64,000 nt of DNA from Candidatus Alcium sp. F082 (GCA_001543395.1 LPNG01000001.1:87760-151759); one strand, 5' to 3'. Positions 30,160 through 52,779 are shown, counted from the stretch's first letter. The notes: generated from the letters alone by a model not told the origin. A program made the numbers and translations.

Positions 30160-30287
30160 GAGTTTCCCCTTCGGGGAATGGAGATGCATGTGTTTTGTTA
30201 ACCGCGGCAAGCAACGTCTACGACTCGTAAGCTTTAAAAGCCGCCGCTGGCAACTATATGCCCCAGCTCCATTCCCGAAGGGAATCT
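30160..30287. repeat. Nested-palindrome intergenic element (MITE/REP-like), copy 1
   Basis: Terminal hairpins tttccccttcggggaatggag / ctccattcccgaagggaatct, inverted with respect to each other, and an inner gcggc...gccgccgc stem. Confidence 0.75.
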
Positions 30288-30289
30288 AT

Positions 30290-31054
30290 TCACATATACT
30301 TTTTCCTTTCTTCATCCGTAAACTTCTCAATGGCATACCTCAGCATGGTGCGCGGCATTGTTGCATGACGTGGCGCTAGCCATTCTTTCAGCCTTTGCTC
30401 ATCGCGTTTTCCCGCCTCACGTAGCAGCCATCCGACGGCCTTCTGCAGGAGGTCGTGCAAGGGTTTCGGCTTGGCCAAAAAGAGTTCAGCAATGGCATAG
30501 GTGTCGTCCAACTCGCCATGACGGATGAATTGCATAGTACTCACCATACCGATGCGTTGCTCCCAAATCGTCTTTCCGTCGCGGGCTAGGTCGTAGAGCA
30601 AGGATCGGTCTTTGTCCAGGAGCCAGGTGCCAAGTAGTTCGTAACAGGAGAGGTCGACCAAATCCCAATTATTGATGTATTGGGTATGGGAAAGGTAAAA
30701 GTCAATGCATTGCTGTTGGAGATTCCGGGTCAAGCCCGGAATGACTGACAAGCCCGGAATGACTGAAGAGGAGGGCGAGACTCGCTTGCCTGCATGCTTG
30801 AAGATCTGCACCAAAGTCAGTAAAGCTGCCAAACGGATTTCGTGATACTCAGATTGGATGCACGCCTCCAAGTCGTCGAAAGAGGTCTCCTTCCAGCACT
30901 GTTTCACCACCTCACGAGTGACAGGCACTTTGACACCAAGGAATTTATCCCCCTCGCCATATTGTCCCTTACCCGTCTTGAAGAAACGCGACAGGTTGAC
31001 GGCTTGCTCGGCATCTTGTCGGGCGAGGATTTCGTTAAACAGCCTGCAATTCAT
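30290..31054 (-). CDS. DNA alkylation repair protein (AlkD/HEAT-repeat family)
   Basis: FFKTGKGQYGEGDKFLGVKVP and the overall HEAT-like helical pattern. Contains an in-frame palindrome/duplication insert (see 30720..30766). Confidence 0.75.
   Translation of the reverse strand: MNCRLFNEILARQDAEQAVNLSRFFKTGKGQYGEGDKFLGVKVPVTREVVKQCWKETSFDDLEACIQSEYHEIRLAALLTLVQIFKHAGKRVSPSSSVIPGLSVIPGLTRNLQQQCIDFYLSHTQYINNWDLVDLSCYELLGTWLLDKDRSLLYDLARDGKTIWEQRIGMVSTMQFIRHGELDDTYAIAELFLAKPKPLHDLLQKAVGWLLREAGKRDEQRLKEWLAPRHATMPRTMLRYAIEKFTDEERKKYM
30720..30766. repeat. In-frame REP-like hairpin (gagattccgggtcaagcccggaatgac) plus perfect 18-bp tandem duplication
   Basis: caagcccggaatgactga at 30731-30748 and again at 30749-30766. 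Encodes ...SSSVIPGLSVIPGLTRNL... within the AlkD-like ORF. Confidence 0.85.
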
Positions 31055-32165
31055 GTTTTTGCTTCTTAATACCTAACACGCACCATCTGACAAACGGAAT
31101 ACGGCATATGATCTCATAAATCACTGGCGACAAAACCATGACGGCCAAGAAAAGGATAACATACATCATCCAAGGGGCCAACGAGGTGTAGTATTTCATC
31201 ATATAGCCCAAAGAGGCAATCACCAGATAATGAACGATATAGATACCGTAACTCGAACGAGTCATATAACCTGCGAAAGCTCCAGTACGGTTGAAACGCG
31301 CCTTAAACCAACCCATCATGGCAAGACACATCAGCCAGCCATAAAGGCAGTTAAGCGGGCTCCCCAGATACTGAGGCGAAGTATTATCCTGACCGAAGGT
31401 AGAAATAATTAGGACCGCGCCAGCAACGACGGCACAAGCCAACAACGGAATCCAAGCCTTCTCGAGTTTCGCGTGCACCTCGTCGTGCGAGAACACGAAA
31501 TAACCCAACAGGAAGGGAACCAGATAGAACAGAGGCTTATACAAGTTCAAGAGGCCATCCAACGATTCGGGACGGGGATTCTTGATGAGCGTCTGCTCAC
31601 CAACCCAAAACAGCACACCCAGCAGGATGATGACAACAAGGTTGGCCTTTCCGCACCAGTTCCAGAATCTGTCTTTCCTGTCTATCGCACGCACCAAAAG
31701 CAACACAAGGCAAAGCAACCACAACACCTGGATGAACCACAAGGGTCCTGTGCCGCTTATGGCCATCATGAAATACTTTGCTATTGCGGGCACGCCATCA
31801 AACACGCCTTGCCTTGAGGCAACAACGGTATTGAAATAACCCACCATCCAATGGAACACAAAGAGGCCTATCGTGCCTGGCACCAATAGTTTGCGCGTAC
31901 GCGACTTAAACCACTCCTTACCTGATTGCTTTTGCAGTGCATATCGGGAGCTGGCACCGGCCAGTAAAAACAATAGCGGCATGAACCAGGGATAGAGGAT
32001 ATACATGACGACATCCTGATACTGCTTATACTGAGGGTATTCGCCAAAGCCACCGACACCACCGAAGACACCTTTGTTGTTGTAGAAATAAAAAACGTGG
32101 TAAAACAGCACCAAGAGCACCGTCACCCAACGTAGGTTATCCATCCAATGCTTGCGTTCCATCAC
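31035..32165 (-). CDS. Acyltransferase family 3 integral membrane protein
   Basis: MDNLRWVTVLLVLFYHVFY start and about 10 hydrophobic segments, typical of acyltransferase_3. Confidence 0.8.
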   Translation of the reverse strand: MMERKHWMDNLRWVTVLLVLFYHVFYFYNNKGVFGGVGGFGEYPQYKQYQDVVMYILYPWFMPLLFLLAGASSRYALQKQSGKEWFKSRTRKLLVPGTIGLFVFHWMVGYFNTVVASRQGVFDGVPAIAKYFMMAISGTGPLWFIQVLWLLCLVLLLVRAIDRKDRFWNWCGKANLVVIILLGVLFWVGEQTLIKNPRPESLDGLLNLYKPLFYLVPFLLGYFVFSHDEVHAKLEKAWIPLLACAVVAGAVLIISTFGQDNTSPQYLGSPLNCLYGWLMCLAMMGWFKARFNRTGAFAGYMTRSSYGIYIVHYLVIASLGYMMKYYTSLAPWMMYVILFLAVMVLSPVIYEIICRIPFVRWCVLGIKKQKHELQAV

Positions 32166-32368
32166 TTGCCCTCCCCTAACACTTCATCAATTTTGTCCTG
32201 AAATATCTCCGTCTTCAAAATGGCCATGCCTTTTGAGTCGCCCAGCACCAACAGGCTGTCGCCAGCCTTGATGCCATAAAGTTCGCGGGCGTCTTTCGGA
32301 ATGACGATCTGTCCCCTGTCGCCCACTTTTACTACACCGAAAATGTATTTTCCTTGTTCTGCTATCAT
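32162..32368 (-). CDS. AbrB/MazE/SpoVT-type DNA-binding domain protein
   Basis: VVKVGDRGQIVIPKDARELYGIKAGDSLLVLGD is a swapped-hairpin barrel motif. The start is moved to the ATG at 32368 because a -7 box overlaps the track start. Confidence 0.75.
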   Translation of the reverse strand: MIAEQGKYIFGVVKVGDRGQIVIPKDARELYGIKAGDSLLVLGDSKGMAILKTEIFQDKIDEVLGEGK

Positions 32369-32404
32369 GATAGTTTGATTTGTATGATTTTTCATATTTT
32401 GCAG

Positions 32405-32412
32405 CAAAAGTA
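32405..32412 (-). promoter_or_regulatory. Candidate -7 box TACTTTTG
   Basis: 37 nt upstream of the ATG at 32368. Confidence 0.45.
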
Positions 32413-32476
32413 GGAAAAGTTTTCATTACTTGTATCATTTCAAGCCAAAAAAAGCGCATTTTTTGATGGTTTTTTC

Positions 32477-32484
32477 TATTTTTG
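32477..32484 (+). promoter_or_regulatory. Candidate -7 box TATTTTTG
   Basis: 34 nt upstream of the ATG at 32518. Confidence 0.45.
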
Positions 32485-32517
32485 CACTCAAATCGAAGTC
32501 AAATAATCATATTTAAA

Positions 32518-35931: not shown

Positions 35932-35947
35932 GTCAAGTTAATAAACC

Positions 35948-36002
35948 AAAAAACCGACCGTCTATAGATTCCCGAGGGAATGACATAGACGGTCGGTTTT
36001 TT
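35948..36002. terminator. Bidirectional terminator whose loop carries a REP-type inner hairpin
   Basis: A-tract, outer stem ccgaccgtctat / atagacggtcgg, inner hairpin agattcccgagggaatgac, then a T-tract. Lies between convergent genes. Confidence 0.75.
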
Positions 36003-36018
36003 ACGTCGTTGCTCCTGT

Positions 36019-37573: not shown

Positions 37574-37592
37574 GATATTTGCGTTTAGGCGA

Positions 37593-37600
37593 CAAAGATA
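37593..37600 (-). promoter_or_regulatory. Candidate -7 box TATCTTTG
   Basis: 20 nt upstream of the ATG at 37573. Confidence 0.4.
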
Positions 37601-37641
37601 CGGATATATTTCGCAATTTTGCAGGCCCAAATAAGATTTCA

Positions 37642-38538: not shown

Positions 38539-38547
38539 ACACTATAT

Positions 38548-38688
38548 GAGGTTCCCGCCTGACGGCGGGAATGGAGTTGGACACATTGTATCCAGCGGCG
38601 GCGTGATGCGGTTACTGGTCAGTAGCTGGCTTTAGCCGCCGCGTGTAACAATACTATACACTCGCCATTCCCGCGAAGCGGGAACCTC
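38548..38688. repeat. Nested-palindrome intergenic element (MITE/REP-like), copy 2
   Basis: gaggttcccgcctgacggcgggaatggag ... gcggcggc ... gccgccgc ... gccattcccgcgaagcgggaacctc. Confidence 0.75.
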
Positions 38689-38706
38689 AACCCATACAAC
38701 AAACAA

Positions 38707-38740: not shown

Positions 38741-38764
38741 AAAAACGATAAAACGTTCAGTGAA

Positions 38765-39028
38765 TTATTCTTGTTCCTTCTTGCGCTTGCCAAGGAGGTA
38801 GGCGCCAGCCAGGCCGGCGAGGAGCATGATGCCTTCTCCAGCAGGGGCCTGCTTCCATTGGTCGTACTCAACATTCTCTTGAGGAACCATGACACCAAAA
38901 TCATTTTCGCTAAGGCGACCACGTTTGTTGTTGTTCCATTCATCTTCCTCGAGAACGAACACCTGTGACATGGCGGGTACAACGGCCATCAACATCAAGG
39001 TTGTGATTGCAATTATTCTTTTTTTCAT
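38765..39028 (-). CDS. Small secreted/anchored protein, 87 aa, with sorting-signal-like C-terminus
   Basis: Signal peptide MKKRIIAITTLMLMAVVPAMSQ. The C-terminus is PAGEG + IMLLAGLAGAYLLG (hydrophobic) + KRKKEQE (basic). Confidence 0.6.
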   Translation of the reverse strand: MKKRIIAITTLMLMAVVPAMSQVFVLEEDEWNNNKRGRLSENDFGVMVPQENVEYDQWKQAPAGEGIMLLAGLAGAYLLGKRKKEQE

Positions 39029-39080
39029 CGTATTTTGGGTTTTATTTGTTATTTCTTCCGTTAATGTTGGGGTCTTGTAA

Positions 39081-39120: not shown

Positions 39121-42100
39121 TTATCTCACCACGACCTTTTGGACCTTGGTGCTGTTGCCTTCGCTTATGCGGAGCATGTAGACACCCTTGGCCACATTGT
39201 TCAGGTTGACACGGTTCTGGTCGTTGGTCAGGCGAGTGCTGTAGATCGTACGACCCAGCACGTCGACCACGTCGAGGTTACCCTTGCCGTTGATGACCCA
39301 CTCGGAGCCGTCGAACCAGGCGAAGTCGTTGTCGCTCTCGTTGTACTCCTCGACGTCGGTCACAGCGAAGGTGATGTAGAAGCGCGACACATAGTCATCG
39401 GTGGTGGCATCGAAGGTGTAGTGGTCGCTACGCAGCATGTCGGTGATCGTACCCGTCATGTTATCAACCAGCAGCAAGCTCGTGAAGTCACCATTCTGGG
39501 TGTTCCAGGTCAGCGTGAAGGTGCCGTCTTCATCGGTGATGAAGCGCACGGGCACGCGATCGGTACCTTCGGGCGTAAACACCAGACCGTAGCTGGTGCC
39601 CTCAAGATGGGCTGCGATCTTGAAGTTGGCGTTGCGCAGGTTGTTCACCTTGCGGACACCGCCAATCTCAGGACGGAGCAACTCGATAATGGCGAGGTCA
39701 CGATTACCCGTCTCATTCTCAGCAAAGAGGTTGACCACAGGATATCTGGGTTGTTCCTCACCGCGGAAGTAAGACGTCTCGTTAGGCGTAGCAGTAGCCA
39801 TGTCGTAAGTGAACTTAAGTTCTTTTTCCGTTCCTTCACGTCCTTCAATAACCACGAAGAATGCTTGGTGCGGGTGGATGAACTGAGAAGGAACAGCTGT
39901 GTTGACAGAAGCATTGGTGATGTAAGGACCATAAGTGCCATTGTCAGCGTCGTAGATATAGAAACCATTGGCTGTAGCATAACCACCAAAACCGTTCTCC
40001 GATGCAACCTTGGCGAGGTCAAGATAGGCCTGATAGGGGTTACCCACAAGGTTGCTGCCCCAATCCTTAGTGGGAGCAGGGTCGTTTTCCTGGTCTCCAG
40101 AGATGGTAAGATTAATCTTAACCTCCTTGTTGTTCAGTGTACCCGTGTTACTCAGGTAGCTGTCCTTGCTGATGGCCATCATGTAGCCACGGCCAGGAGT
40201 GAAGGTCGTTTCGTTAGTATACATAATCTGGTCGTATGGGTCATCATAGTGCCAGTGGCTATCAGAACCACGCTTGAAGTTAATCCAATGGTACTGTGGC
40301 TCATAGTATGTATAAAGATCCCATGTGACTTCAGTTTGATCAAGCAAACCATTTGGCATGTAGTTTCCAACCATAGTCAAAATATTGGCAGGTGCACCAT
40401 GTAAAGCCTGTCCTCCATAAGTCGTACCCATCGGAGCATCGCTCAGCGGCGTTGACATCAAGTGCCAGTCATACTCTAACAAGTTGCCATAGTAGTCGTG
40501 AGCGCTCTTGCTCGAGTTGTCGAAGGTGATACCCACGACAGCTTTGATACTAGCCATAGCTTTGCCGTTAGTGGCTTCCTTCTGCAGCAATACGGCATCT
40601 TCGTTGATGAAGAGCATATTGTCACCATTGCCCTTCGTCACATCAACAGCTTTGCCATAGAGGAACATTTTGACCGACTTGCCATCAAATCTGGCAAACA
40701 GATTGTCGAGGCCGTTGGCACCATCATAAATGGAGCTATAGCGCAAGAACTTGCCATCAGTAGAAGCCAAACTGTTGTCGGTGTCGAAGCCTAAAATCGG
40801 CAAGTCGCTATTGATGTCGCCAGAGGTCGGACGGAACCACTTGGTATAGCCAGTGTGCGTCTTGACCCATTGGTTCAAAGCGTCAAGCATACCAGGCCAT
40901 CTGTTTATTTTACCACCACTGTATGTAATCGCAGTTGCAACACAATTGTTGGATTGTCCATCAGCAAAAGTAATCTTGTTGTCGTCATACATATAACCGA
41001 TAGCTTTGCGATCCAATGGTGCGCTATAGAGGCCGTGGCCTGTGAGTGAAGTCTCATTACCAGGAATACCAACATAACCGTTTGAAGCGTCTGCATAGCA
41101 GATGGTAATCTCACCATCGCTATTGTCGTAAGCAAAAGCTGGGAAGGTTTGCTCACCAATAGCAGCGTAGCAGTTCTCCACATGACCATTGTTTACGCCA
41201 ACGAGACCACCAATACTAGTAGCTTGCGTACCCGTGACAGTCACGTTGCTGTAGCTATTGTAGAGGTCAGCACCATTGACGGCAACCAAACCGCCAACTG
41301 TGGTTTCGTCTCTCTGTGCTATAATCGTGTTAACAGCGAAAGAGGAATGGATGGTGCTACCTTCTTCGGCAACAGCGACGAGACCGCCAATATTCTGGGC
41401 AAATTCGTCATCGCCAGTAAGATTACCAGCAGCTTCAATATTGGCGAGTGTACCACCTCTCATGGTACCGATAACCGTAGCATAGTTATTGGCCACACCA
41501 TTGAAGTTGGCAACGGCAACCATATCGTGGATATTGGCACCTTCGGTGATACCAAACATACCGAGGTCTGTTCTGTAGAGCGAACTGACGAGGCCTTCAA
41601 TCACAAATCCATTACCCTCAAATTCACCCTTGAACACATTATTTCTCTCACCAATTGGCACCCAAGTATGCTCATGCATGTCTAGGTCTTTCTTGATGAT
41701 CACTTTCTTATTGGTAAAGTCGTCGGGGTCACAGCCATTCTCACCATTGACCAAAGAAATTACCCAAGCAAGGTCTTCTTCGGAGTCGATGTTATCGATG
41801 GAAAAACCTTCGGGCTGCGAAGTGACCCAAGTTACCCAAGTGTCAATCCAATACAGGATGTTGGGATCGGCACCCGTTTCCAACTTATAGATTTCGCCAT
41901 CGTGGACAATAATGGCCTGAGTTTCATGAGGTTCATCAAGCCAGGCAAGCTCGTTAGAATAGACCACCTCAGCAATACCGGCAACAAAGTAATCGATAGG
42001 CTTGCTCAAGCCAATGAAAGCGGAATGTGCTGCATCATTTTCAACGTAAGCCAATTCCTTGTAGTTCTCAGAATCATTGTCTTCACCAATCTGAAGCTTT

Positions 42101-45100
42101 TTATCTACACCAGCAAGGTAGACATTGTTTTGGCCGTTACTATTTGTGTTGTCCCAAACCTTAACCATGTCAGAGGCAATCATGGTGCCATTCATATAAA
42201 CGCCACCGCCATTCCCGTCAGTCTTGTTGTCAGTGATAGAGGCATCCTGATTCATCATCAAAGTACCGCCGTTATTCACATAAACAGCACCGCCGTCATT
42301 AGTATTGTAGTTCTGCTCCAAAAGCACAGCTTGATTCAACTCAAGGGTACCGCCGTTCTGAACAGTGATTAACGGGGACGTAGAAGTAACAGTACTATAT
42401 TCAACACCTTCTTCACCACCATTATTATAATAACCGTCCAAATCGATACCACGTATAATCATATGACCGCCATTCGGCACATCAACTAGTGCACCCGTAT
42501 AGGCTGCGTTGTCAGGATTGCCAATGATACCGACTTCTTCATTATACAATTCATGACCACCATTATAACGGTAAATCTTCACTTGACCACCTTGGGTAAG
42601 GCCATTCCATTCGAGGTCATCGTCGGCTGTCACTTGGTTAACCACATAGACTTCATCGCCAGGCAAGAAGCCTGAACGGGTAAAGATGGCACCCAAAGTA
42701 AGCATGGCTCTGTCAGGTTTCGTACCTGGATAGGAGTTCTTACCGTTAACACCATCCAAATAGAAGCGGTTGCCCATACCACGACGATACACCTTGATGG
42801 TAATCGTGAAGTCTTTAGAACCATTCGGATATTGAGTAGTGGTCTCGCCATAGTTGGTAAATCTCATGTGATATACCAAAGTACCCATCAGTTCAGGAGC
42901 GACAACTCCTACCAATTCCTCTTGTCCATTGTAATTCAAGGCGAAGTCGAATGAGAATTGCGTACGGCCACCCGTGGTACCCATTTCTTTAGGTGTAATC
43001 GCTGGCGGGCCTAACAACACCCTGGTGTCATAAACTGTGGGAGTAAGCTCATTCCAACCCGTTGTACCATCGTAGTTATCGGAAATGCTAAATTCCATGG
43101 CAAACTTGGTCTTATCAAAACCACCATCAGCAATATTAACCAACGTACCTGAGCCACCGCCATTGGTCGGCAAAGTAGCAGGCGTCCAGTCAATGCTTTC
43201 AACGGTGAAATGGGAATCAACGCCTGGTACATTCAAGTTGAAACGAGGTAACACCACTTGTACATGAGCCTCTTCAGCTGTAGAGCCATTACCGTTCATC
43301 ACAGCATAAACCTCAGTCTCAAAGTTACGGCCAACGATGGTTGAGGTATTGACAATCAGCTTGATCTTGACGATGTCTTTCACATTGCCGTTCTTGTCAC
43401 ATTGCACCAGATTAACCCACATCGGTTTGTATGTCTTGTTAGAGCTCAACAAGTCACTATAGGTCAAGCGGAATTTCACAGTAGGCATAATGTCATTGGT
43501 AGTATAAGTGAACTTATTGATAGGTTCACCCTCCTGACGTTTCACCAAGAATTCATCGGCATCATTATTGATAATCAGAGCAGGAGCTGTGGCACCTTCA
43601 ATTTGGGGTGAGCTTAAGGCATCACCTTCACCACTGAGGATGACCAAACCGTAGTTGACATCAGGGTTGCTTCTAATTTCATTTTGAGCCTCAGTATTGG
43701 CTTCAAGAACCTGTGCATGTGTAGAGGTATTGTAATAAATCCAGGCATCATTATCATAAAGAGCCGCATTATAGGTCATCAACTCCGGACCGTAATCAGT
43801 GGTGGTAGCAAGAGCAGGCGCAGTGCCCTTAGTTTGGAAAGCATAATAGTAATCATGGCCACGCCATGCAGGTAATTCAATCTCAACATCCACATATTTG
43901 AACACATTATTACCATAAGCCACCACATCGAAAACGCCTTCACGTTCGTGGATCTGGCCTGTAGTACGCCAAATACGGAAGTAGGCCTCACCCACCTTCG
44001 AGCCAGGAGTGTGGTTTTCGTAGGCCATCTGAACATTACCTTCATTACCTTCCAAATCAAACACGTTGTCGCTATCGACATAGCTCACCCAACCACCATC
44101 GTTGCGGTTGTCATAGGTGGCATCATTGATATGGAACAAGTTATCGTCGTTGGCGCACCATCGCGGACGAGCGTATGCACAGGTAGCTTCGTTGTTGTCG
44201 GCAGTCATCATATATGCATAGCCGTTGAGCATGCCATAGCCAGGCTCATAGGAAACGTTGTTGCCTGAGCCACTTGCAATCTGCTTGTCATGGTAAACCT
44301 TAATGTAGTTACCACCATTCACACGAATCTTATTAGGCGTGGCACTCAATGTAGAAGGATTGACAACTGTGTAATCACCATTGTCATAAGTACCATCGAT
44401 TTGTTTCGTAGGCAACTCAGCCGTGTAAACATCACTGCACGAAGTGCTCCAGAAGGTCATGACTTGGTCGACGGGGGCATCCATGATGAGAGTGCTACCA
44501 CCTGTTACAATGACCGCCTCAGTAGCCTCATAGAGAGAATACACCTCAGTGACATTGAGGGAGTTGATACGGCCTTGGCCTAAGAAATCGACATGGACAT
44601 TATCCAATACAATGTAGTCGGCACGCTGAATAGATCCAAAGTTACGTGTAGCGGAATTGTAGGGACTTTGAGATTGACCATAGTTGCGCAGCATCACGGT
44701 ATGTTCTTTCTTACCAGCATCGCAGGATGTACCTGAGCCGAAAAGGCTGCCGTCGATACCCATGTAACCCACAGTATTCTTGTCTGAGGTGTTGGTGATG
44801 TAGTCTTTACCATCGACATAGACGTTGGAGTTACCAGATATAGTAGGAGCGCCAAACTGGTCCACGAAGGTACCCCAGTCGCCACCAGCCCAAACAGAAC
44901 CTGTGATCGACAGTTTGGAGATGGTGTATTCCTCTCCAGCCGACTCGCTGCCTAAAGTTTCCACATGGTTCGGTGCGTTATAGATGGCATCCTTACCCAC
45001 AAAGGCAAATACCGAACCGAAGCAGTTGCCGAAGAAGCCGGCGGCATACACCTGCTGGTCAATCTGACCACCACTGATGTTGACTACGCACACAGTCTCT

Positions 45101-47955
45101 TCGTTGGTAGCTGTTTCGAAGTCGCCAGGCTCAAACGAGAGAGCATCGTCGGCATTACGCGAGCCGCCATACACGTTGGCGAAGACATGGCCACCCATCA
45201 CGTTGACAGTATGGCGACCGGCTACATACACTTGGTGTTGCTCACCGAGTGCACCACCATACACGCTGCCATGCACCGAGCCGTTCTTCACATTGACGAT
45301 AGTACCACCATCAGTAGTGCCAAAGGCGCCGCCACCAAATACATTCTCGCTGATGTTACCGCCATTGATAGTAACCGTAGAAGCAACAGCAACTTCCTGT
45401 TGCTCTGGAGCAATTATCTCAATATCATCAATAAGCAGCCAATATTGGTCAGTACAATTAAAGTGGCGAATGGCAATATAACCTGCTTTACCAGAATAGG
45501 CACTTAAATTAGCTGAGAATTGATGCCATGTGCCTTGATCACGATTACCGCCACGTGACACTCCTTCAGGACCTTTATTTCCATTAGCAGGCAATGTCCA
45601 TTCGTTAACCAAAACGAAAGAAGAAGCGTTGTTATCTGTAATAGAAACAAACACGCCAAAATGCTCTTCCGAATAATTACCATCTTGAGCACAAGCCCAA
45701 AAACTGATGCTGCCACCTAGATTCACACGTGGGGAAACCAAATAGTTGTCTGGTGTTAAAGCACCGACATTGTTAATATAAGAAGCAGAGGCGGCAACAC
45801 CAGTACCATTATGTCCACCGAAATCCGTACTAGCCTGCCAGTTATAATTATCACCATCGGCATCAATCGTTGTCCAATTGCCCAATGTACCATCAGCAAA
45901 ATCATATGTTAACGTTCCGAAAAGGCCTGGTTCAACAGCACTTTCTGCTCCAATATTTCCATTCTCACCGCCACCATACACATTGGCGATGGTGCCGCCA
46001 GTAACTTCCACAAAGGTTTGGCCAATAACTTCAGCAGAAGAAGAAGTAGCACCCTTGCCAGCGCCATACACATCCTTCATGGTGCCACCGCTGACCTTAA
46101 CGTTGGTATTACCCGTTACGGTACCTTCCTCACCACCGCCATACACATTATTATTAATAGTGCCACCAGAGATGTTGACAGAGGTGCCAGCCGCCATATT
46201 GGTAGCAGATCCATATCCACCACCGAACACATTGGTGACGGTACCGCCTCCGACATTCACAGTGGCAAGACCCGCCACTGCACCAGATGCGTTGGCACCT
46301 CCATAGAGTGATCCAACAACCTTACCACCTTTCATGGTAACCGTTGTCTTGGCCTCGCTACGGGCTCGGTTGGCACCACCGAACACGGAACCACTCACGG
46401 TAAGTGTATTCGCGCCTCCGCCAAGCACCCACACTTCGGTGTCATCGGTGCAGTAACCGTTGTTACCTCCGCCATACACATTACCAGCAATCTGGGCTTC
46501 GTCTGCTACGACAACGAAAGATTTTTGAACAGTATATCTATTATCTGCAGTGGCATAATTACCATAGCCGGATCCGAAGACGCCTTCACCGCTATCAGTT
46601 TGTTTTGCATTACCACCAAAATAAATATAGGTATTACCTTCGGTCACACCATTCTCATCGGTGGAATTGTCTGTACCATAACAACCACCTGCAACCCAAT
46701 CAGTAAATGTACCACCAGTAATAACAGTCTTTCTGCTTCCATATGCTGTTGAGTGCTGTCCTGAACCATATAAATATTGATTGATTGTGCCACCTTTAAT
46801 GCGCATATTTAAGGTGAGTGTAGTGGCACTTACTCCTCTTTCAATACCACCAGCAATACCTCCTTGGAACACGCCTCCTAAGACTTCAAGGTATCGCGGC
46901 GCCTGGGTATTGTATGAACTACTATTGGCTTCATAGCCCATGTATAACTCTGTATTGTCTCCTGTGGAGCCAAATGTACCGCTCATGGCTGTGACTTTAG
47001 CAGTGCCGTTTGCTGAAGTCAAGTTAAAGTTGTAAGCCACCTCCGCTTGTTGAGCAATGGTAAGATTGGTATTCGTCTTCTTGGCACGGTCGTAGTCGCA
47101 ACCAAGTGTCATTTTCCATGTGTTGGCAGAACCAGTTCTTGTATTTCTATATCCATAGAACATATAAGCTCGGGTAAAACTACCACTTTCAATGCGCAAG
47201 TTAAAACTATTAATAGTGACATTACCACCATTGGTGCCATAATAGCCATAAATCCTACTAATAGCATTGCTACAAGTTATACCACGACCGATGATTAGGC
47301 TGTTGCCTTGGCCATTAAGGTAGGTGTTTTCACCTGCTCTAGACAATGTGGCATTCTCAAACTTTGTGTTAGCTCGGCAATTGAAATAATTATTATAGTT
47401 GTCGCTATAGCCAAAAGTGATAGTTCTTTTAGTTCCCGCACCCGTTGCAGGATCAAGTGTAGTATAAGTAACAGGAACGTTCAATCCATTTCCGTATAGG
47501 GTCGTGTTTGAAGAGAGGTAAACAAAGTTGCGCTCATAACCAACCGAAGCCTCAAGGCCATTGGTCGTGTTACTTGTCACGACATAGGCTCTTGCCCAAA
47601 CTGCTTCAAATTCCACTTCATTGCCATCGCTGTTGTTGGTAACAAATTGGATTTCCGTTTCGGCAGGAATAATGCTACCCACATTATAACCATTAATGGT
47701 CACGCCATTGAGGCTCTTCACACGCCAACCATAGAAACCTGTATAATACTTTGTGCCTTGTAAAGTGAAAGAAGGACGCACACTGAACGGGTTCGGAATC
47801 AGCGTATAGGCCAAGTTGCCAGTACCGGCATCACCATTGGCACGCTCGAGGGTCTTCAGATAGATGAAAGTGTCTTCTTCATCAGAAGGACCGACTTTCA
47901 CACCTGTAGCATCGCTAAGGTTACCAGAAGGTGTAGCACCTGTAGAGGTGTACAT
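39121..47955 (-). CDS. Giant beta-helix-repeat surface protein with T9SS C-terminal sorting domain, 2944 aa (probable C-terminal part of a split ~3,460-aa gene)
   Basis: Dozens of V[YF]GGG..G.V.G.T.V.V.GG units. Also a cleaved-adhesin/choice-of-anchor-like module (DGTLGNWTTIDADGDNYNWQ...LVSPRVNL) and a C-terminal GVYMLRISEGNSTKVQKVVVR. No signal peptide at its own N-terminus. Confidence 0.85.
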   Translation of the reverse strand: MYTSTGATPSGNLSDATGVKVGPSDEEDTFIYLKTLERANGDAGTGNLAYTLIPNPFSVRPSFTLQGTKYYTGFYGWRVKSLNGVTINGYNVGSIIPAETEIQFVTNNSDGNEVEFEAVWARAYVVTSNTTNGLEASVGYERNFVYLSSNTTLYGNGLNVPVTYTTLDPATGAGTKRTITFGYSDNYNNYFNCRANTKFENATLSRAGENTYLNGQGNSLIIGRGITCSNAISRIYGYYGTNGGNVTINSFNLRIESGSFTRAYMFYGYRNTRTGSANTWKMTLGCDYDRAKKTNTNLTIAQQAEVAYNFNLTSANGTAKVTAMSGTFGSTGDNTELYMGYEANSSSYNTQAPRYLEVLGGVFQGGIAGGIERGVSATTLTLNMRIKGGTINQYLYGSGQHSTAYGSRKTVITGGTFTDWVAGGCYGTDNSTDENGVTEGNTYIYFGGNAKQTDSGEGVFGSGYGNYATADNRYTVQKSFVVVADEAQIAGNVYGGGNNGYCTDDTEVWVLGGGANTLTVSGSVFGGANRARSEAKTTVTMKGGKVVGSLYGGANASGAVAGLATVNVGGGTVTNVFGGGYGSATNMAAGTSVNISGGTINNNVYGGGEEGTVTGNTNVKVSGGTMKDVYGAGKGATSSSAEVIGQTFVEVTGGTIANVYGGGENGNIGAESAVEPGLFGTLTYDFADGTLGNWTTIDADGDNYNWQASTDFGGHNGTGVAASASYINNVGALTPDNYLVSPRVNLGGSISFWACAQDGNYSEEHFGVFVSITDNNASSFVLVNEWTLPANGNKGPEGVSRGGNRDQGTWHQFSANLSAYSGKAGYIAIRHFNCTDQYWLLIDDIEIIAPEQQEVAVASTVTINGGNISENVFGGGAFGTTDGGTIVNVKNGSVHGSVYGGALGEQHQVYVAGRHTVNVMGGHVFANVYGGSRNADDALSFEPGDFETATNEETVCVVNISGGQIDQQVYAAGFFGNCFGSVFAFVGKDAIYNAPNHVETLGSESAGEEYTISKLSITGSVWAGGDWGTFVDQFGAPTISGNSNVYVDGKDYITNTSDKNTVGYMGIDGSLFGSGTSCDAGKKEHTVMLRNYGQSQSPYNSATRNFGSIQRADYIVLDNVHVDFLGQGRINSLNVTEVYSLYEATEAVIVTGGSTLIMDAPVDQVMTFWSTSCSDVYTAELPTKQIDGTYDNGDYTVVNPSTLSATPNKIRVNGGNYIKVYHDKQIASGSGNNVSYEPGYGMLNGYAYMMTADNNEATCAYARPRWCANDDNLFHINDATYDNRNDGGWVSYVDSDNVFDLEGNEGNVQMAYENHTPGSKVGEAYFRIWRTTGQIHEREGVFDVVAYGNNVFKYVDVEIELPAWRGHDYYYAFQTKGTAPALATTTDYGPELMTYNAALYDNDAWIYYNTSTHAQVLEANTEAQNEIRSNPDVNYGLVILSGEGDALSSPQIEGATAPALIINNDADEFLVKRQEGEPINKFTYTTNDIMPTVKFRLTYSDLLSSNKTYKPMWVNLVQCDKNGNVKDIVKIKLIVNTSTIVGRNFETEVYAVMNGNGSTAEEAHVQVVLPRFNLNVPGVDSHFTVESIDWTPATLPTNGGGSGTLVNIADGGFDKTKFAMEFSISDNYDGTTGWNELTPTVYDTRVLLGPPAITPKEMGTTGGRTQFSFDFALNYNGQEELVGVVAPELMGTLVYHMRFTNYGETTTQYPNGSKDFTITIKVYRRGMGNRFYLDGVNGKNSYPGTKPDRAMLTLGAIFTRSGFLPGDEVYVVNQVTADDDLEWNGLTQGGQVKIYRYNGGHELYNEEVGIIGNPDNAAYTGALVDVPNGGHMIIRGIDLDGYYNNGGEEGVEYSTVTSTSPLITVQNGGTLELNQAVLLEQNYNTNDGGAVYVNNGGTLMMNQDASITDNKTDGNGGGVYMNGTMIASDMVKVWDNTNSNGQNNVYLAGVDKKLQIGEDNDSENYKELAYVENDAAHSAFIGLSKPIDYFVAGIAEVVYSNELAWLDEPHETQAIIVHDGEIYKLETGADPNILYWIDTWVTWVTSQPEGFSIDNIDSEEDLAWVISLVNGENGCDPDDFTNKKVIIKKDLDMHEHTWVPIGERNNVFKGEFEGNGFVIEGLVSSLYRTDLGMFGITEGANIHDMVAVANFNGVANNYATVIGTMRGGTLANIEAAGNLTGDDEFAQNIGGLVAVAEEGSTIHSSFAVNTIIAQRDETTVGGLVAVNGADLYNSYSNVTVTGTQATSIGGLVGVNNGHVENCYAAIGEQTFPAFAYDNSDGEITICYADASNGYVGIPGNETSLTGHGLYSAPLDRKAIGYMYDDNKITFADGQSNNCVATAITYSGGKINRWPGMLDALNQWVKTHTGYTKWFRPTSGDINSDLPILGFDTDNSLASTDGKFLRYSSIYDGANGLDNLFARFDGKSVKMFLYGKAVDVTKGNGDNMLFINEDAVLLQKEATNGKAMASIKAVVGITFDNSSKSAHDYYGNLLEYDWHLMSTPLSDAPMGTTYGGQALHGAPANILTMVGNYMPNGLLDQTEVTWDLYTYYEPQYHWINFKRGSDSHWHYDDPYDQIMYTNETTFTPGRGYMMAISKDSYLSNTGTLNNKEVKINLTISGDQENDPAPTKDWGSNLVGNPYQAYLDLAKVASENGFGGYATANGFYIYDADNGTYGPYITNASVNTAVPSQFIHPHQAFFVVIEGREGTEKELKFTYDMATATPNETSYFRGEEQPRYPVVNLFAENETGNRDLAIIELLRPEIGGVRKVNNLRNANFKIAAHLEGTSYGLVFTPEGTDRVPVRFITDEDGTFTLTWNTQNGDFTSLLLVDNMTGTITDMLRSDHYTFDATTDDYVSRFYITFAVTDVEEYNESDNDFAWFDGSEWVINGKGNLDVVDVLGRTIYSTRLTNDQNRVNLNNVAKGVYMLRISEGNSTKVQKVVVR

Positions 47956-47971
47956 TTTACCATTACCATAA

Positions 47972-49528
47972 TTAAGTAATCTTCACATCAGCAGGATTGA
48001 GACTACGGATGGGATTAGTAGCATCGCTATAGTAGCTCCAGCTATGGTCTTCAAAATCGTTGAGGATAACAACGCCACCATATGTGCCGCTATTGCCACC
48101 GCCAGGCAGATACATCTCAGTCACCACATTCGAAGGGTCGTAGTTTTGGTCAACAACTCCATCGGTCACTTTATAGGCAATCACTTTTACCGTAGTACCA
48201 GGATGGAGGTCATTCACTGTAACCGATGTTCCAGTTGTCACCTCCGTGCCATTGGTCGTGCTGGGGGTAGAGCCGTCCGTAGTATAGCGGATGACGTAGT
48301 TATCTTCCCAAGAGATTGTAGCTGTACCCGTATTGTTATTATCTACGATAGTAATTGAAGGATCAGGCACTTGCAGCTTTGCGAAGTTGTATAGGATCAC
48401 AGCAGACTGCTTGGCACAAGTTTGGGCAACGATACGGAACTTGAAATTGGTATTGGGGCTAGTCCATTCGAAATGCACCTTGCCAGGCATCGCACCGTTC
48501 CATCCATCGGGAGCCACATAGGTACCCACATTATTAGGATTACCATTACCAAGATAATCAGGATCCTCAGGCGTGCCGCCATTGTATGCGCGTGTATAAA
48601 TAACACCATAAGTTTCGTTAATATGGTCCGGCACTGCAGGAGGCGTAATGATGATGGTATTGCCATCACGTTCAATCAACGCATCGTTAGCATTGGGAAC
48701 AGGAGTGGCGTCAGAGGCATTGTAGGTCTTATCTGCAAAACCTTCACATGTTTGGTTGCCAATAACAGTAATTGCCTTCACCGTCGTAGGATAGGTGATG
48801 GAGAAAGGATCTTCATAGAGCATGCTGCTCGTACCCGGATTGCTGCCGTTAGTCGTATAACGGACTTGGGCACCCAACGTAGTGGGATAAAGCACAATCA
48901 AGTCGGAGCACACTTCCATGCTGATGGCAGGCTTCTGCAATCCGTAGGAAGTAGCAGGAATAGCCTTCACCGTAGCGCCCCAACCTTCTTCAGTATGGGC
49001 GTTAACGGCATCGAAATGGAAAGTGATCGGGCCATTTGACATAATGGTGAATTCATCAACGATGGTACCCGTCAACGTAGTGATGAGTTTGGCAGGATCC
49101 ACTGCTGTTCCTTCATACACGCTCAGCGTAGCATCATTCAGACGCATGGAGTATGTACCAGGAAGGGCGTGAGCGTTGTTGGTACCGTTGTTGTCGGTAT
49201 AAGCCGTAAACGACTCAAAATCCACTTGGACGGCATAACCAGCCGTTTCGGGATTAAAGGTGTAGGTAAACTCGTTTCTCGAGAACCAGTGTAACCAATA
49301 ATTGTCTGGACCTTTTGACGGACCGCCCGCATCGTAGAACTTCACACCAGAGGTTCCAACGTACGAACTGCCGTTGTGCATGTATACTTGTGCCTTAGCC
49401 GGCACCACAAAGATCAAGGCGCAGAGCGCCAGGAAAGCAGTCCTCATCACGAGGCGCACTTTCAGCTTGTGATTTTTCACTTGCATGATCGTTTTACTGT
49501 TTTTGGAGTTTGTAACTATTTGATTCAT
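47972..49528 (-). CDS. Signal-peptide-bearing N-terminal fragment of the giant adhesin gene, 518 aa
   Basis: Signal peptide ...MRTAFLALCALIFVVPAKAQ. Two chitobiase/hexosaminidase-C-like modules (VRYTTNGSNPGTSSMLYEDPFSI; IRYTTDGSTPSTTNGTEV). No T9SS domain of its own. It ends 16 nt before, and +1 out of frame with, the 2944-aa ORF. Confidence 0.75.
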   Translation of the reverse strand: MNQIVTNSKNSKTIMQVKNHKLKVRLVMRTAFLALCALIFVVPAKAQVYMHNGSSYVGTSGVKFYDAGGPSKGPDNYWLHWFSRNEFTYTFNPETAGYAVQVDFESFTAYTDNNGTNNAHALPGTYSMRLNDATLSVYEGTAVDPAKLITTLTGTIVDEFTIMSNGPITFHFDAVNAHTEEGWGATVKAIPATSYGLQKPAISMEVCSDLIVLYPTTLGAQVRYTTNGSNPGTSSMLYEDPFSITYPTTVKAITVIGNQTCEGFADKTYNASDATPVPNANDALIERDGNTIIITPPAVPDHINETYGVIYTRAYNGGTPEDPDYLGNGNPNNVGTYVAPDGWNGAMPGKVHFEWTSPNTNFKFRIVAQTCAKQSAVILYNFAKLQVPDPSITIVDNNNTGTATISWEDNYVIRYTTDGSTPSTTNGTEVTTGTSVTVNDLHPGTTVKVIAYKVTDGVVDQNYDPSNVVTEMYLPGGGNSGTYGGVVILNDFEDHSWSYYSDATNPIRSLNPADVKIT

Positions 49529-49677
49529 TTTAATTTATGATTTATTTTCGTAACTATTTACAATTCTCTTTGTCTTCACCTGCTCGGGCTCAATCATTAA
49601 AAAAACTGCCCTTCGCCGGCGAGGCTTTTATTAATAAGGTGTAGTGCCTCTTGGGCACACTATCCATTTTAAGGCTG

Positions 49678-49685
49678 CAAAAGTA
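49678..49685 (-). promoter_or_regulatory. Candidate -7 box TACTTTTG for the adhesin locus
   Basis: 150 nt upstream of the track start at 49528, so the leader would be long. Low confidence. Confidence 0.3.
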
Positions 49686-49780
49686 CAAAAAAAATGGACT
49701 GGAAGGATATTTTTCTTAAAAAACATTTTATTTAGAATTAATTTTAATAGAAGAGTTGGCGTTACTGCACACGGTGCTTT

Positions 49781-49936
49781 AGATTCCCCTGTGGGGAATG
49801 GAGATGGGTGTAAAGTGGCCTGCGGCGGTCAATAACGTTAACGTCCCGTAAACGCTTCAAACCGCCGCGTGATACCTGATAACTATAACTCCATTGACTT
49901 CGTCGAATCAAAGATTTCCCGCGCAGCGGGAACCTC
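49781..49936. repeat. Nested-palindrome intergenic element (MITE/REP-like), copy 3 (right end rearranged)
   Basis: agattcccctgtggggaatggag ... gcggcgg ... ccgccgc ... ctccatt ... agatttcccgcgcagcgggaacctc. Confidence 0.7.
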
Positions 49937-49983
49937 ATACCCCTACACTCCAGCCCAAAACCTTCATTGCGAGAAAAGGGAAA

Positions 49984-50013
49984 CAAAAAAAGCGCCCATG
50001 GGCGCTTTTTTTG
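49984..50013. terminator. Bidirectional rho-independent terminator
   Basis: AAAAAAA-AGCGCCCATGGGCGCT-TTTTTTT, just downstream of the minus-strand gene ending at 50033. Confidence 0.75.
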
Positions 50014-50032
50014 TTTTGACATGATACCATCC

Positions 50033-50899
50033 TTACAGTTGGTTGTAAGCGGGCGAGAAGGTGTCGCCGAGGCTGACGTCGCCCGTGCTGATGCCTTTCC
50101 TCAGCCAACGGGAGCGCTGGGCGCTGGTGCCGTGGTTGAAGGTCTCAGGCATGGTGCGGCCGTAGGCCTGTTTCTGCAGGTAGTCGTCGCCGATCTTCGA
50201 AGCAGCGTTCAAGGCTTCCTCGATGTCGCCGTCCTCCAATGAGCCAAACAGCTTATTGTCGTTGTTGGCCCACACACCAGCGAAGAAGTCGGCCTGCAGC
50301 TCCAAACGCACGCTGATCTCGTTCGACTGTTTGGTGTTCTGTCCATAACGCGCCATCTGCTGATGTGCCTGGCCCAAGATGCCGAGCTGGTTCTGCACAT
50401 GGTGACCCACCTCGTGAGCGATGACATAGGCATAGGCAAAGTCGCCGTCGGCACCAATCTGACGACGCATGCTCTTGAAGAACTCAAGGTCAAGATAAAC
50501 GGTCTCGTCTGCGGAACAATAGAACGGTCCGCTGGCCGAGGTGGCGTTGCCGCATGCCGAGTTGACGGCGTCGCTGAAGATGACCATCTTGGGCGGCTGA
50601 TAGGTGCGGCCCATCTTCTTGAACTCACGGTCCCAGACGTCCTCGGTGCCAGCCAAGATACGCTTGCAGAAGGTCATCAGCTCCTGATCCACCTGACTAT
50701 AGTCCTGCTCGTCGACATACTCGGTTGAAGCACCCTGTTGCTGTTGCTCGAGCATGGGGCTGATGTCGACACCCAAGAAGCTCTTCAACACAAAATAAAG
50801 AATCAAGCCGCCAAGGCCGACGCCACCGGCGGTTGCCACCGCCCTTTTACCGCGGCGGTCTTCTACGTTCGTACTTTCTCTGCGTCCTTCAAGTTTCAT
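50033..50899 (-). CDS. YpfJ-family neutral zinc metallopeptidase (membrane-anchored)
   Basis: N-terminal RRESTNVEDRRG, one TM segment, and HEVGHHVQ (HExxH). Confidence 0.8.
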   Translation of the reverse strand: MKLEGRRESTNVEDRRGKRAVATAGGVGLGGLILYFVLKSFLGVDISPMLEQQQQGASTEYVDEQDYSQVDQELMTFCKRILAGTEDVWDREFKKMGRTYQPPKMVIFSDAVNSACGNATSASGPFYCSADETVYLDLEFFKSMRRQIGADGDFAYAYVIAHEVGHHVQNQLGILGQAHQQMARYGQNTKQSNEISVRLELQADFFAGVWANNDNKLFGSLEDGDIEEALNAASKIGDDYLQKQAYGRTMPETFNHGTSAQRSRWLRKGISTGDVSLGDTFSPAYNQL

Positions 50900-50929
50900 A
50901 GTTTTCGAATTTTTAAGTTAATTTGAGGG

Positions 50930-50937
50930 CAAAAATA
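50930..50937 (-). promoter_or_regulatory. Candidate -7 box TATTTTTG
   Basis: 31 nt upstream of the ATG at 50899. Confidence 0.45.
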
Positions 50938-50978
50938 CATAAAAACCAAAAGAAAAGGGAATTTTTCTGAAAAAACTG

Positions 50979-50986
50979 TATTTTTG
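50979..50986 (+). promoter_or_regulatory. Candidate -7 box TATTTTTG
   Basis: 30 nt upstream of the ATG at 51016. Confidence 0.45.
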
Positions 50987-51015
50987 CCCTACTTAACACA
51001 TCAATCATTTCTATC

Positions 51016-51210
51016 ATGAAAGCCTACGTCAACGACATCGAAGTGCGCACTTACTACGGCGCCAAAGTGAAATCGGTGGTGCTGGCCTACTGCCGCGCCC
51101 ACAACCTGCCCCTCAAACTCGACGACGTCGAGGTACGCGACGCCTACGGCAACATCATCGGTCTGGACGGATCGTTGCGCGCCAACTCAAAAATCTACGT
51201 CAAATTCTGA
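51016..51210 (+). CDS. Hypothetical small protein, 64 aa
   Basis: Track ORF with its own -7 box. Ends 5 nt before the 5'-nucleotidase gene. Beta-rich; no motif recognised. Confidence 0.5.
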   Translation: MKAYVNDIEVRTYYGAKVKSVVLAYCRAHNLPLKLDDVEVRDAYGNIIGLDGSLRANSKIYVKF

Positions 51211-51215
51211 AGGCC

Positions 51216-52646
51216 ATGAAAAAACGCTGTCTACTCGTTTTGACGGCCTTGGCCGCCATGTTCCTCTTTGCCTCATGCGAGAAGGAACAGAAGATCTACG
51301 TCGTTTCGACCAACGACATGCATGCCAACATCGATAACTTCCCACAGCTGGCTGCCCTCGTCGACAGCCTGCGCACGGCACATCCCGACCTGCTGCTCTT
51401 CGGCGCGGGCGACAATCGCTCGGGCAACCCCATCAACGACCGCTACGCCGAGCCTGCCAAGCCCATGTATGAGCTGATGAACAAGGTCGGCTTCGACCTC
51501 TCCACCTTCGGCAACCACGAGTGGGACGGCGGCGTAATAGCTCTGCGTAACGTGCTCACCTGGGCACAGTTCCCCTTCGTCTGCGCCAACGTCACCTTCG
51601 ACGACAGCTTGCAGATGCCCAACTTCAAGCCTTACGAGATCTTTGAGCGCAATGGCTTGAAGATCGGTGTCATTGGTGGTATACAGCTGGGCGAGAACGG
51701 TCTGCCCGACTTCCATCCCAAAAACGCCGGCGGCTCGCACTTCCGCCCCCTCACCGAGGTGCTGCCCGAATATCTGCCCAAGCTCCGCGAGCAATGCGAC
51801 CTCGTCTTCCTCCTCTCCCACTGCGGCTACGAAGAAGACCGTGAGACGGCCGAACAATTTCCCGACCTCGACGCCATCTTCGGCGGCCACAGCCACACCC
51901 GTGTGAGCGAGACCCAACTCGTCAACGGCGTACTCGTCACCCAAGCCGAAGCCAAAGTCAAGTTCGTGACCCTCAGCACCTTCACCTTGAAGAAGGGCAA
52001 GGTCATTGACAAGCAGATGGAGCTGCTCTCCGTCAAGGAGTTCCCGAAACGCAACGAGGAGGTGCAGGCTATGGTTGACGAATACAACGACAACGATTAC
52101 TTCCGCACCGTGGTCACCACCAACACCACGCCTATCGACAACTACGAGTCGCTGGGCTGCCTGATGACCGACGCCATACGCTACACTACGGGCGCCGACA
52201 TGGGCTTCCAGAACCCTGGCGGCGTGCGCTACGACACCCTCTCGGCCCGTCCTGTGACCTTGAAGGACATCTTCGCCCTCGACCCCTTCGACAACGAGAT
52301 CATCGCCTACACCCTCAGCGGCGAGGAGGTCGTCAACATGATGGAATCATGCTTCACCAGCGACCATGGTCCCATCTACTGTTCGGGCTGCTCCTATAGT
52401 TTTAAGGTGAGCGACGAAGGCGAGATCACCGACTTCAAGGTGACCTTGGACAACGGCAAGCCCATTGACCCCAGCGCCAAATACAATGTGGTGATGAACA
52501 GCTACATGTCAAGCACCTTCGACTACGAGCACGAAGACGAGGGCCGCAGCACCTTCCGCAGCTCAAACGAGCTGATGCTGGAGTACCTGGCCAGCCATCC
52601 CGAAATTGATTACGGCACGACTCATAGAGTCACCGAAGTGGAATAA
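51216..52646 (+). CDS. Bifunctional metallophosphatase / 5'-nucleotidase lipoprotein (UshA-like)
   Basis: Lipobox LFASC; metallophosphoesterase motifs STNDMHAN, GAGDNRSGNP, GNHEWD and GGHSHT; C-terminal 5'-nucleotidase domain. Confidence 0.85.
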   Translation: MKKRCLLVLTALAAMFLFASCEKEQKIYVVSTNDMHANIDNFPQLAALVDSLRTAHPDLLLFGAGDNRSGNPINDRYAEPAKPMYELMNKVGFDLSTFGNHEWDGGVIALRNVLTWAQFPFVCANVTFDDSLQMPNFKPYEIFERNGLKIGVIGGIQLGENGLPDFHPKNAGGSHFRPLTEVLPEYLPKLREQCDLVFLLSHCGYEEDRETAEQFPDLDAIFGGHSHTRVSETQLVNGVLVTQAEAKVKFVTLSTFTLKKGKVIDKQMELLSVKEFPKRNEEVQAMVDEYNDNDYFRTVVTTNTTPIDNYESLGCLMTDAIRYTTGADMGFQNPGGVRYDTLSARPVTLKDIFALDPFDNEIIAYTLSGEEVVNMMESCFTSDHGPIYCSGCSYSFKVSDEGEITDFKVTLDNGKPIDPSAKYNVVMNSYMSSTFDYEHEDEGRSTFRSSNELMLEYLASHPEIDYGTTHRVTEVE

Positions 52647-52779
52647 GAGATTCCCCTGCGGGGAATGGAGTTAAGTCGTATGTATTATTGCGGCGGTTTG
52701 TGACGTTTACGATTTGTATGCGTTACTTGCCGCCGCAGTTTACATAATAACAGGTTTTCCATTCCCCGCAGGGGAATCT
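52647..52779. repeat. Nested-palindrome intergenic element (MITE/REP-like), copy 4 (most symmetric)
   Basis: gagattcccctgcggggaatggag ... gcggcgg-N39-ccgccgc ... ttccattccccgcaggggaatct. Confidence 0.8.

Follow-up and report, generated by a model that had tools for sequence, protein, structure and literature searches.

Within a stretch of 64,000 nt from Candidatus Alcium sp. F082 (hereafter the window), we analysed a four-copy family of intergenic palindromic elements, which we read, with a probability of about 75%, as REPIN- or BIME-like dimers of Ssn-type (CGTC-superfamily) hairpins that act as single-stranded DNA (ssDNA) together with a GIY-YIG nuclease partner. The repeat family is common in uncultured rumen Bacteroidales, and related Bacteroidales genomes show a gene arrangement like NTS-ssn-NTS, in which the elements lie on both sides of a small nuclease gene. 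The ssDNA mechanism and the partnership themselves are suggested by published homologues of the nuclease and by the genomic association described here. The partner gene lies outside the window and did not figure in the original prediction, which was made from the window alone and proposed either a mobile element or a structured RNA; the nuclease is most likely encoded elsewhere in the same genome.

The host of the window was placed in Bacteroidota from its neighbouring genes (type IX secretion system (T9SS) cargo, C25 and C10 peptidases, and giant adhesins) and its GC content of 47.8%. A covariance model trained on 84 relatives and run on both strands of the window recovered exactly the four full copies (E 1e-15 to 4e-27; Table 1), with the next match at E 0.76. 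All four copies could be aligned over their entire length, confirming the locations given in the original prediction. The pattern GCGGCGG-N30-60-CCGCCGC occurred three times in the window against 0.01 expected by chance. Copies 1, 2, and 4 folded with energies of -52 to -86 kcal/mol (z -4.4 to -13.4), and copy 3, which is truncated, folded more weakly (-49 to -51 kcal/mol, z -2.2 to -3.3). In copy 1, the left GC arm has a degenerate sequence in the window (CCGCGGC) and is intact in another strain.

Table 1. Hairpin elements of the window, with their positions and main properties
Feature	Position	Strand	Description
Copy 1	30160-30288		Head-to-head unit-hairpin dimer with GC-clamped spacer; covariance model 89.5 bits, E 1e-22
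Copy 2	38548-38688		Long-stem unit hairpins ATTCCCGCC..GGCGGGAA; covariance model 74.6 bits
Copy 3	49780-49936		Extra hairpin in 3' arm; covariance model 71.2 bits
Copy 4	52647-52780		Most regular copy; covariance model 105 bits, E 4e-27
Solo unit hairpin TGTC-ATTCCC-TC-GGGAAT-CT	35966-35985	minus	Nested in the loop of a bidirectional terminator; weak covariance-model match
Intragenic hairpin AGTC-ATTCCGGG-CTTGA-CCCGGAAT-CTCC	30718-30746	minus	In frame inside the DNA-alkylation-repair gene
Second hairpin family, dimer CGTC-ATTGCGAGG..GAAGCAAT-CCAG, 16-nt spacer, inverse	23707-23784		Tail-to-tail, canonical CGTC tags

Each element is a head-to-head dimer of REP-type (repetitive extragenic palindromic) unit hairpins around a spacer of about 85 nt. 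From the centre outward, a unit consists of the tag CTCC, a stem beginning with ATTCCC, a triloop (GAA, GCA, or GTA), the return stem GGGAAT, and a C; in some copies, matching G-C pairs lengthen the ATTCCC stem. Midway along the spacer, the arms GCGGCGG and CCGCCGC close 33-34 variable bases, fewer than the 35-45 nt noted previously. The consensus runs GAGATTCCC-TTC-GGGAATGGAG, N18, GCGGCGGC-N33-GCCGCCGC, N20, and CTCCATTCCC-GAA-GGGAATCTC. The tag CTCC stood directly before the ATTCCC stem 120 times; in the alignment CTCCATTCC was nearly invariant, with a C after GGGAAT or GGGAAC, and the loops in tag orientation were mostly GAA or GCA. DNA mini-hairpins with a GNA triloop closed by a C-G pair are unusually stable. 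Between species, the GC arms and the GGGAATGG/CCATTCCC motifs were invariant; the sequence of the core and the linkers varies freely, whereas their length hardly changes. The 3' hairpin, described earlier as the inverse of the 5' one, is indeed inverted, but in most cases it does not reproduce the 5' unit exactly, as 79 of 92 elements are heterodimers. It follows that the local hairpins, rather than long end-to-end pairing, are what is conserved.

A scan of species-representative genomes with a 23-base gapped pattern returned at least 117 loci; of the matches listed, 89 came from 31 metagenome-assembled genomes (MAGs) of rumen, yak, goat, buffalo, or horse Bacteroidales, including Candidatus Limimorpha, and the remainder were GC-rich chance matches without hairpins. 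Phage contigs scanned likewise contained no elements and gave GC-rich chance matches only. The covariance-model scan, which the original prediction had put forward as a check, detected approximately 117 elements in 679 kb from 31 rumen or gut Bacteroidales MAGs in addition to the four window copies. The elements are small and uniform (117-134 nt) and form clusters or tandem arrays at some loci, such as L052, where three copies follow one another with a 159-nt period. Between two elements of locus L079 lies a non-coding stretch of about 475 nt (1063-1537) with a Bacteroidetes-type promoter motif TAACTTTG followed by GC-richer sequence; it partly recurs in L008, L106, and L116 and could represent either a gene for a small RNA or a further repeat. 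One subfamily (core CAAGAACAAGTTGCCAATCTGTAGCGCCACAGG; L079, L102, L105, L038, L093, L106, and L008) carries a one-sided 5' extension of 8-mer repeats TTTAACTGTTTAATTGTTTGTTGAG.

The segments between clustered copies were homologous in four MAGs and encode a single-domain GIY-YIG protein of about 119 aa (PF01541, E 2.6e-12). Among the loci fetched by the element pattern, L092, L107, L084, and L062 encode proteins with 78-100% identity to the L092 protein and have elements of the window family on both sides; at L040 (72% identity, C-terminus only), the locus ends inside the gene, and a window-family element lies downstream. Among the loci fetched by the protein alone, L131-135 (86% identity to the L092 protein) and L145-148 (82%) also have window-family elements on both sides. 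Diverged cognate tripartite elements flank both sides of the gene in L136-141, L142, L143, and L144 (57-65%), and (C/T)GTC-tagged hairpins do so for homologues of other phyla in L149 (Candidatus Magasanikbacteria) and L150 (a JGI metagenome), whose proteins share 56-59% identity over 76% of the query. The diverged elements of L136-L144 bear the tags CACC or CGTC, stems ATTCCGC.. or ATTCC../ATTTCGAG.., and a GC-rich central hairpin. The nuclease gene was thus found with elements or diverged cognates on both sides in 10 complete contexts, the eleventh (L040) being cut by the locus end. At the five pattern-fetched loci, each of which has different neighbouring genes, the distance from the nuclease stop codon to the downstream copy is 6-47 nt, with the copy abutting it in three, and the upstream copy precedes the start codon by 40-80 nt. 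L052, which is orthologous to L107, has three tandem elements and no nuclease gene where L107 has element-gene-element, and the copies flanking the gene in L107 and L145 are near-identical direct repeats. No variation was seen at the catalytic residues (Y, Y, R, H, E, and N). Contigs carrying the gene were mostly shorter than 2 kb, as expected if repeats flank it. In L136, a long tandem array of CGATTTA/CGATTTG heptamers (3260-3385) extends into an N-gap a short way downstream of the diverged nuclease-flanking elements.

The arrangement resembles that of SsnA, a GIY-YIG protein of 94 aa with a single domain (Chenal et al. 2025, PMC11893778) that binds the Neisseria repeat NTS (CGTCATTCCCGCGMAVGCGGGAATCYRG, containing dRS3) only as ssDNA and on one strand only, makes its cut a few bases upstream, and has no action on double-stranded DNA or RNA. 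In the same study, 71% of Ssn homologues had such motifs (Ssn-related motifs, SRM) nearby and 42% had them on both sides, the critical NTS bases were the 3 nt preceding the palindrome and the C that follows it, the NTS-gene-NTS arrangement reduced transformation, and NTS repeats clustered near surface-protein genes (PMC11893778). The hairpin core of the elements described here is near-identical to that of NTS (CGTC-ATTCCCGCG-MAV-GCGGGAAT-C in NTS and CGCC/CTCC-ATTCCCGC-GAA-GCGGGAAC-C in copy 2). Also shared with SRM are a 20-50 nt hairpin-forming inverted repeat with oriented, non-palindromic flanks (a conserved 4-nt tag upstream and a C after the palindrome), present in many intergenic copies, and, in related genomes, a small single-domain GIY-YIG gene with the motif on both sides, the protein and the motif co-varying. 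The catalytic Tyr, Tyr, and Glu are spaced as in SsnA (Y6/Y17/E64 versus Y7/Y18/E66). Unlike SRM and NTS, the window family has the tag CTCC instead of HGTC, shorter stems, 3-nt loops, and a fixed dimer geometry with a GC-clamped core, and the Bacteroidales protein, from uncultured rumen hosts, has a C-terminal extension of about 25 aa that SsnA lacks. The elements do not follow the literal dRS3 pattern ATTCCC[N8]GGGAAT, the same stems enclosing N3 to N10, mostly 3-7 nt.

The unit hairpins also resemble the CGTC-tagged REP superfamily, in which an unpaired 4-nt tag (CGTC, with the variants TGTC and CCTC) precedes a stem starting with AT, and both the loop and the tail are short (Di Nocera, De Gregorio and Rocco 2013, PMC3733652). 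Most of those REPs are paired head to head around spacers of 20-100 bp that are conserved and structured, and heterodimers are common; they lie <20 bp from the 3' ends of genes, occasionally supply the stop codon, and have copies inside DNA-repair genes, and no dedicated enzyme was found for them at the time (PMC3733652). Shared with the present family are the A-T/T-A stem start, the short loop and tail, the head-to-head dimers with a conserved spacer, the frequency of heterodimers, the position at the 3' ends of genes with a stop codon supplied at times, and the presence of copies in DNA-repair genes; the CTCC tag, however, is not among the listed variants, and the stems here measure 6-9 bp. 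The tags that we observed were CTCC in the main family, TGTC in the solo unit, AGTC in the intragenic unit, and CGTC in the family at 23707-23784. As in REPINs and BIMEs, two inverted REPs and a spacer make up one long hairpin (Bertels and Rainey 2011; Bachellier et al. 1994).

Several observations weigh against a pairing of the window elements with an Ssn-type nuclease. The 64-kb window itself contains no GIY-YIG gene. None of the seven window units tested matched the published pattern HGTCWYN(0-2)YYVSBRHN(0-5)WNVSBRGN(0-2)RNCYNB, and only one did so when the tag was left free. A search against solved structures gave the nuclease a sole, weak match, a UPF0213 protein (E 6.5e-4), and the label Ssn-like, as applied to this putative nuclease, derives from PF01541 and the spacing of catalytic residues, not from an assignment to cd10448 (GIY-YIG_unchar_3). 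The all-versus-all locus comparison yielded two candidate empty sites, both in diverged intergenic regions and neither of them clean. A metagenome scan found no empty copy-4 site, a weak result because the copy-2 alleles were also absent there and the collection may hardly hold the flanks.

The same gene arrangement could have arisen in the reverse direction, with a selfish homing-type GIY-YIG gene inserting in or beside repeats that were already there and contributing neither to how they spread nor to what they do. GIY-YIG domains are frequently found in homing endonucleases (PMC1564403), otherwise orthologous loci differ in having or lacking the gene (L107 and L052), and the near-identical direct repeats around it in L145 and L107 fit such an arrival. 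However, the gene adjoins only about 5 of 117 elements, so that it is not spreading through the elements, the protein is a single domain without a DNA-binding module, and published homologues specifically bind and cut the flanking motif (PMC11893778). The co-variation of protein and repeat is predicted by homing and by partnership alike. We assign homing a low probability.

The partnership with a GIY-YIG nuclease also has to be weighed against the classical REPIN scheme of Pseudomonas and E. coli, in which a single-copy Y1 HUH transposase (RAYT) copies the dimers. The architecture of two inverted REPs forming a long hairpin is the same, inheritance at orthologous loci looks vertical, and RAYT subclasses 2.4 and 2.6 occur in Bacteroidetes, where they have secondary structures termed 'atypical' on their flanks (PMC6006769). 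The likeness to REPIN-RAYT systems extends to the persistence at orthologous loci, the low-copy nuclease gene flanked by repeats, and the mosaics of hairpin types. The elements nevertheless lack a GTAG/GTGG tag, and a motif search of the window and 123 loci gave no convincing HUH...Y open reading frame (ORF), the two matches being long unrelated ORFs. The repeatedly flanked gene encodes a GIY-YIG nuclease, which is hydrolytic, instead of a Y1 HUH transposase capable of rejoining DNA, and copying by a RAYT is very unlikely.

Still less probable, to the point of being nearly dismissed, is a MITE (a miniature transposable element with inverted repeats), that is, a deletion derivative of an insertion sequence that depends for its movement on a DDE transposase acting in trans and recognizing terminal inverted repeats of about 24 bp. 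Terminal inverted repeats, the uniform length, and the many dispersed copies are what such an element would show, and in one comparison of a filled with a shorter locus, a 232-nt extra segment was bounded on both sides by CATATT. That case, however, comes from an intergenic region that is hypervariable, and the insertion is not clean; the two ends of an element are usually different variants, and they are self-folding hairpins that also occur alone. No transposase recurs beside the copies in the 679 kb, where the recurrent neighbours are housekeeping genes. Neither a consistent target-site duplication in the flanks nor a clean empty site, both of which had been suggested as checks, emerged from the locus comparisons. 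The earlier label MITE/REP-like therefore holds for its second half, as the elements are multi-copy, present in many species, built as head-to-head dimers, and located at the 3' ends of genes, and not for a MITE with 24-bp terminal inverted repeats. Two further candidates were rejected: attC sites, because the conserved GTTRRRY-like bases are internal instead of terminal, and invertible promoters, because no promoter motif is present.

The elements favour the 3' ends of genes. Among 55 elements with a nearby ORF stop, 39 start at most 10 nt from the stop codon, and a few provide the stop codon themselves (TGAGATT, TAGATT). In tandem-gene contexts, 42 of 50 are closer to the upstream stop than to the downstream start, and placement between divergent genes accounts for 7 of 75 elements, compared with 19% of background intergenic regions. 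In the window, copy 1 lies 1 nt past the stop codon of a DNA-alkylation-repair gene (30290-31054, minus strand), with a hydrolase gene downstream; copy 2 starts 9 nt after the stop codon of an SBF-like transporter gene; copy 3 lies between a Zn-peptidase terminator and the promoter region of a T9SS adhesin operon; and copy 4 begins directly 3' of the TAA stop codon of a 5'-nucleotidase gene. These are three tandem contexts and one convergent context with no divergent one, so the statement that the copies occur in every gene-orientation context was too broad. The gap to the downstream gene is often about 40 nt, indicating that many copies lie within operons, and assembled metatranscriptome contigs pass straight through copy 4. 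Located just after stop codons and co-transcribed, the elements probably have a secondary role as 3' RNA hairpins, as classical REPs do.

A primary role as RNA is a different matter. In that case the element would be a structured 3'-untranslated or intercistronic module (a stabilizer, an attenuator, or a small RNA) selected as RNA, in keeping with the starts 0-10 nt after stop codons, often in apparent operons, the contigs crossing copy 4, the conservation between strains, and a 40:15 bias in similarity-based orientation relative to the upstream gene. These orientation counts include orthologous loci and are thus not independent, and replication-linked orientation would predict the bias equally well. 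Furthermore, no Rfam 15 family reached its gathering score in the window elements and 10 loci, and an E-value search with copy 4 returned generic long-hairpin noise. In the RNAalifold analysis the conserved pairs were invariant, with covariation at one pair only, and the core had no consensus fold. Sense and antisense strands folded equally well (23 against 22), elements are flipped in place without loss, the published partner-enzyme family does not bind RNA (PMC11893778), and the flanking of the nuclease gene would be left unexplained. The structured-RNA half of the original prediction is accordingly unsupported, and we regard selection primarily as RNA as improbable.

At three of the four loci, the elements differ less from strain to strain than third codon positions do, copy 2 being the exception. 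Copy 4 diverged by 1.9% against about 9% at third codon positions and was present in all six strain contigs. Copy 1 diverged by 3.8% against 10.6% (it is 96% identical in L002, compared with 89% at third positions of the adjacent gene), and the core of copy 3 diverged by about 3% against 6-9%. Copy 2 diverged by about 15% (85% identity) against 9.7% and is wholly inverted in L002, its flanks being near-identical to those in the window (45/47 and 52/52). A second inversion separates two species, L104 and L051, which share the flanks and terminal hairpins and differ in the orientation of the inner 85 nt or so. Copy 2 had the window orientation in all four metagenomes; flipping is thus an occasional event, not a frequent phase variation. 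Beside copy 2, at 38846-38918, a 71-nt stretch inside an 87-aa ORF is swapped for 71 different letters in three other metagenomes.

The copy 3 locus is occupied in other species (L042, L071), and its end types differ between strains. In the window, its 3' arm contains an extra 16-nt hairpin, CTCC-ATTGAC-TTC-GTCGAAT (49893-49908), and this same variant is found in other species; L004 and L005 lack the 21-nt extra hairpin of copy 3. L005 has two copy-3 elements around a strongly self-pairing, GC-rich 221-nt repeat (11122-11342), and the window copy 3 looks like a recombinant of these two flanking copies. The 221-nt segment is itself a repeat, with matches at L076 6565-6772 (79%) and L042 1-118 (88%) and others in L015, L009, and L071; an Rfam search with this insert gave no match beyond generic hairpin noise. 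Copies 2 and 3 lie just outside the ends of a strain-variable T9SS adhesin block (39121-49528), which holds a 2944-aa Cleaved_Adhesin/T9SS protein and a 518-aa Fn3_assoc protein. The block is missing from L002, and other giant-protein variants occupy its place in L001 and L004-L006.

By analogy with the published homologues, a mechanism can be outlined for dimers paired with the GIY-YIG nuclease. Whenever the DNA becomes single-stranded (during replication, repair, or the entry of incoming DNA), the tagged strand of each unit would fold into a very stable hairpin. The nuclease would bind this hairpin in a sequence- and strand-specific manner and nick a few bases 5' of the tag, inside the spacer, and the outcome could be a control of recombination or uptake around the flanked genes. 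Over evolutionary time, repair of the breaks may maintain and spread the repeats, and recombination between the inverted arms would flip an element in place. A bolder version, which we consider rather unlikely, holds that the tripartite dimer is a self-perpetuating unit sustained by the nuclease, that its core is a second recognition site, and that copies bracket T9SS adhesin cassettes to steer recombination. If true, this dimer would be a second and mechanistically different counterpart of the REPIN-RAYT partnership, and copies 2 and 3 around 39.1-49.5 kb would act like the NTS repeats around Neisseria surface-protein genes.

A nuclease partner of this kind would extend the Ssn nuclease/hairpin-repeat partnership to abundant uncultured rumen Bacteroidales and would support an answer to the question raised in 2013 of which enzyme belongs to the CGTC-type REPs. 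As the CTCC tag and the dimer architecture escape the published pattern, surveys based on that pattern would undercount the system. The repeats also break assemblies, as the short nuclease contigs illustrate, and mark hot spots of strain variation beside surface-protein genes. Each new hairpin/nuclease pair would be a candidate site-specific ssDNA cutter.

Beyond the dimers, the same genomes contain solo units, tandem arrays, and hairpins within hairpins. The lone unit hairpin that had been noted in a terminator loop is real (Table 1) and is also found in strain L002. The hairpin noted in a coding region is likewise present and related, but it is a different unit type, which occurs between genes in L040 (4087-4117). 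In the window gene, an 18-nt tandem duplication that keeps the frame comes after the hairpin (caagcccggaatgactga twice; 30731-30748 and 30749-30766), such that SVIPGL is encoded twice (peptide SVIPGLSVIPGL). Further unit types include CGTC- or AGTC-ATTGCG.., AGTC-ATTCCGG.., and CTCC-ATTGAC.., sometimes nested in each other's loops. The dimer of the second hairpin family lies 14 nt from the stop codon of a gene at 23799-25439 (minus strand), and related units were seen in L040, L077, L060, and L066.

Elsewhere in the window, the sole Rfam match above its gathering score was a DUF805b RNA at 15845-15879 (minus strand; 35.9 bits, E 1.8e-06), and the region 10000-16000 is a low-GC stretch (0.37-0.40 versus 0.48 for the whole window).

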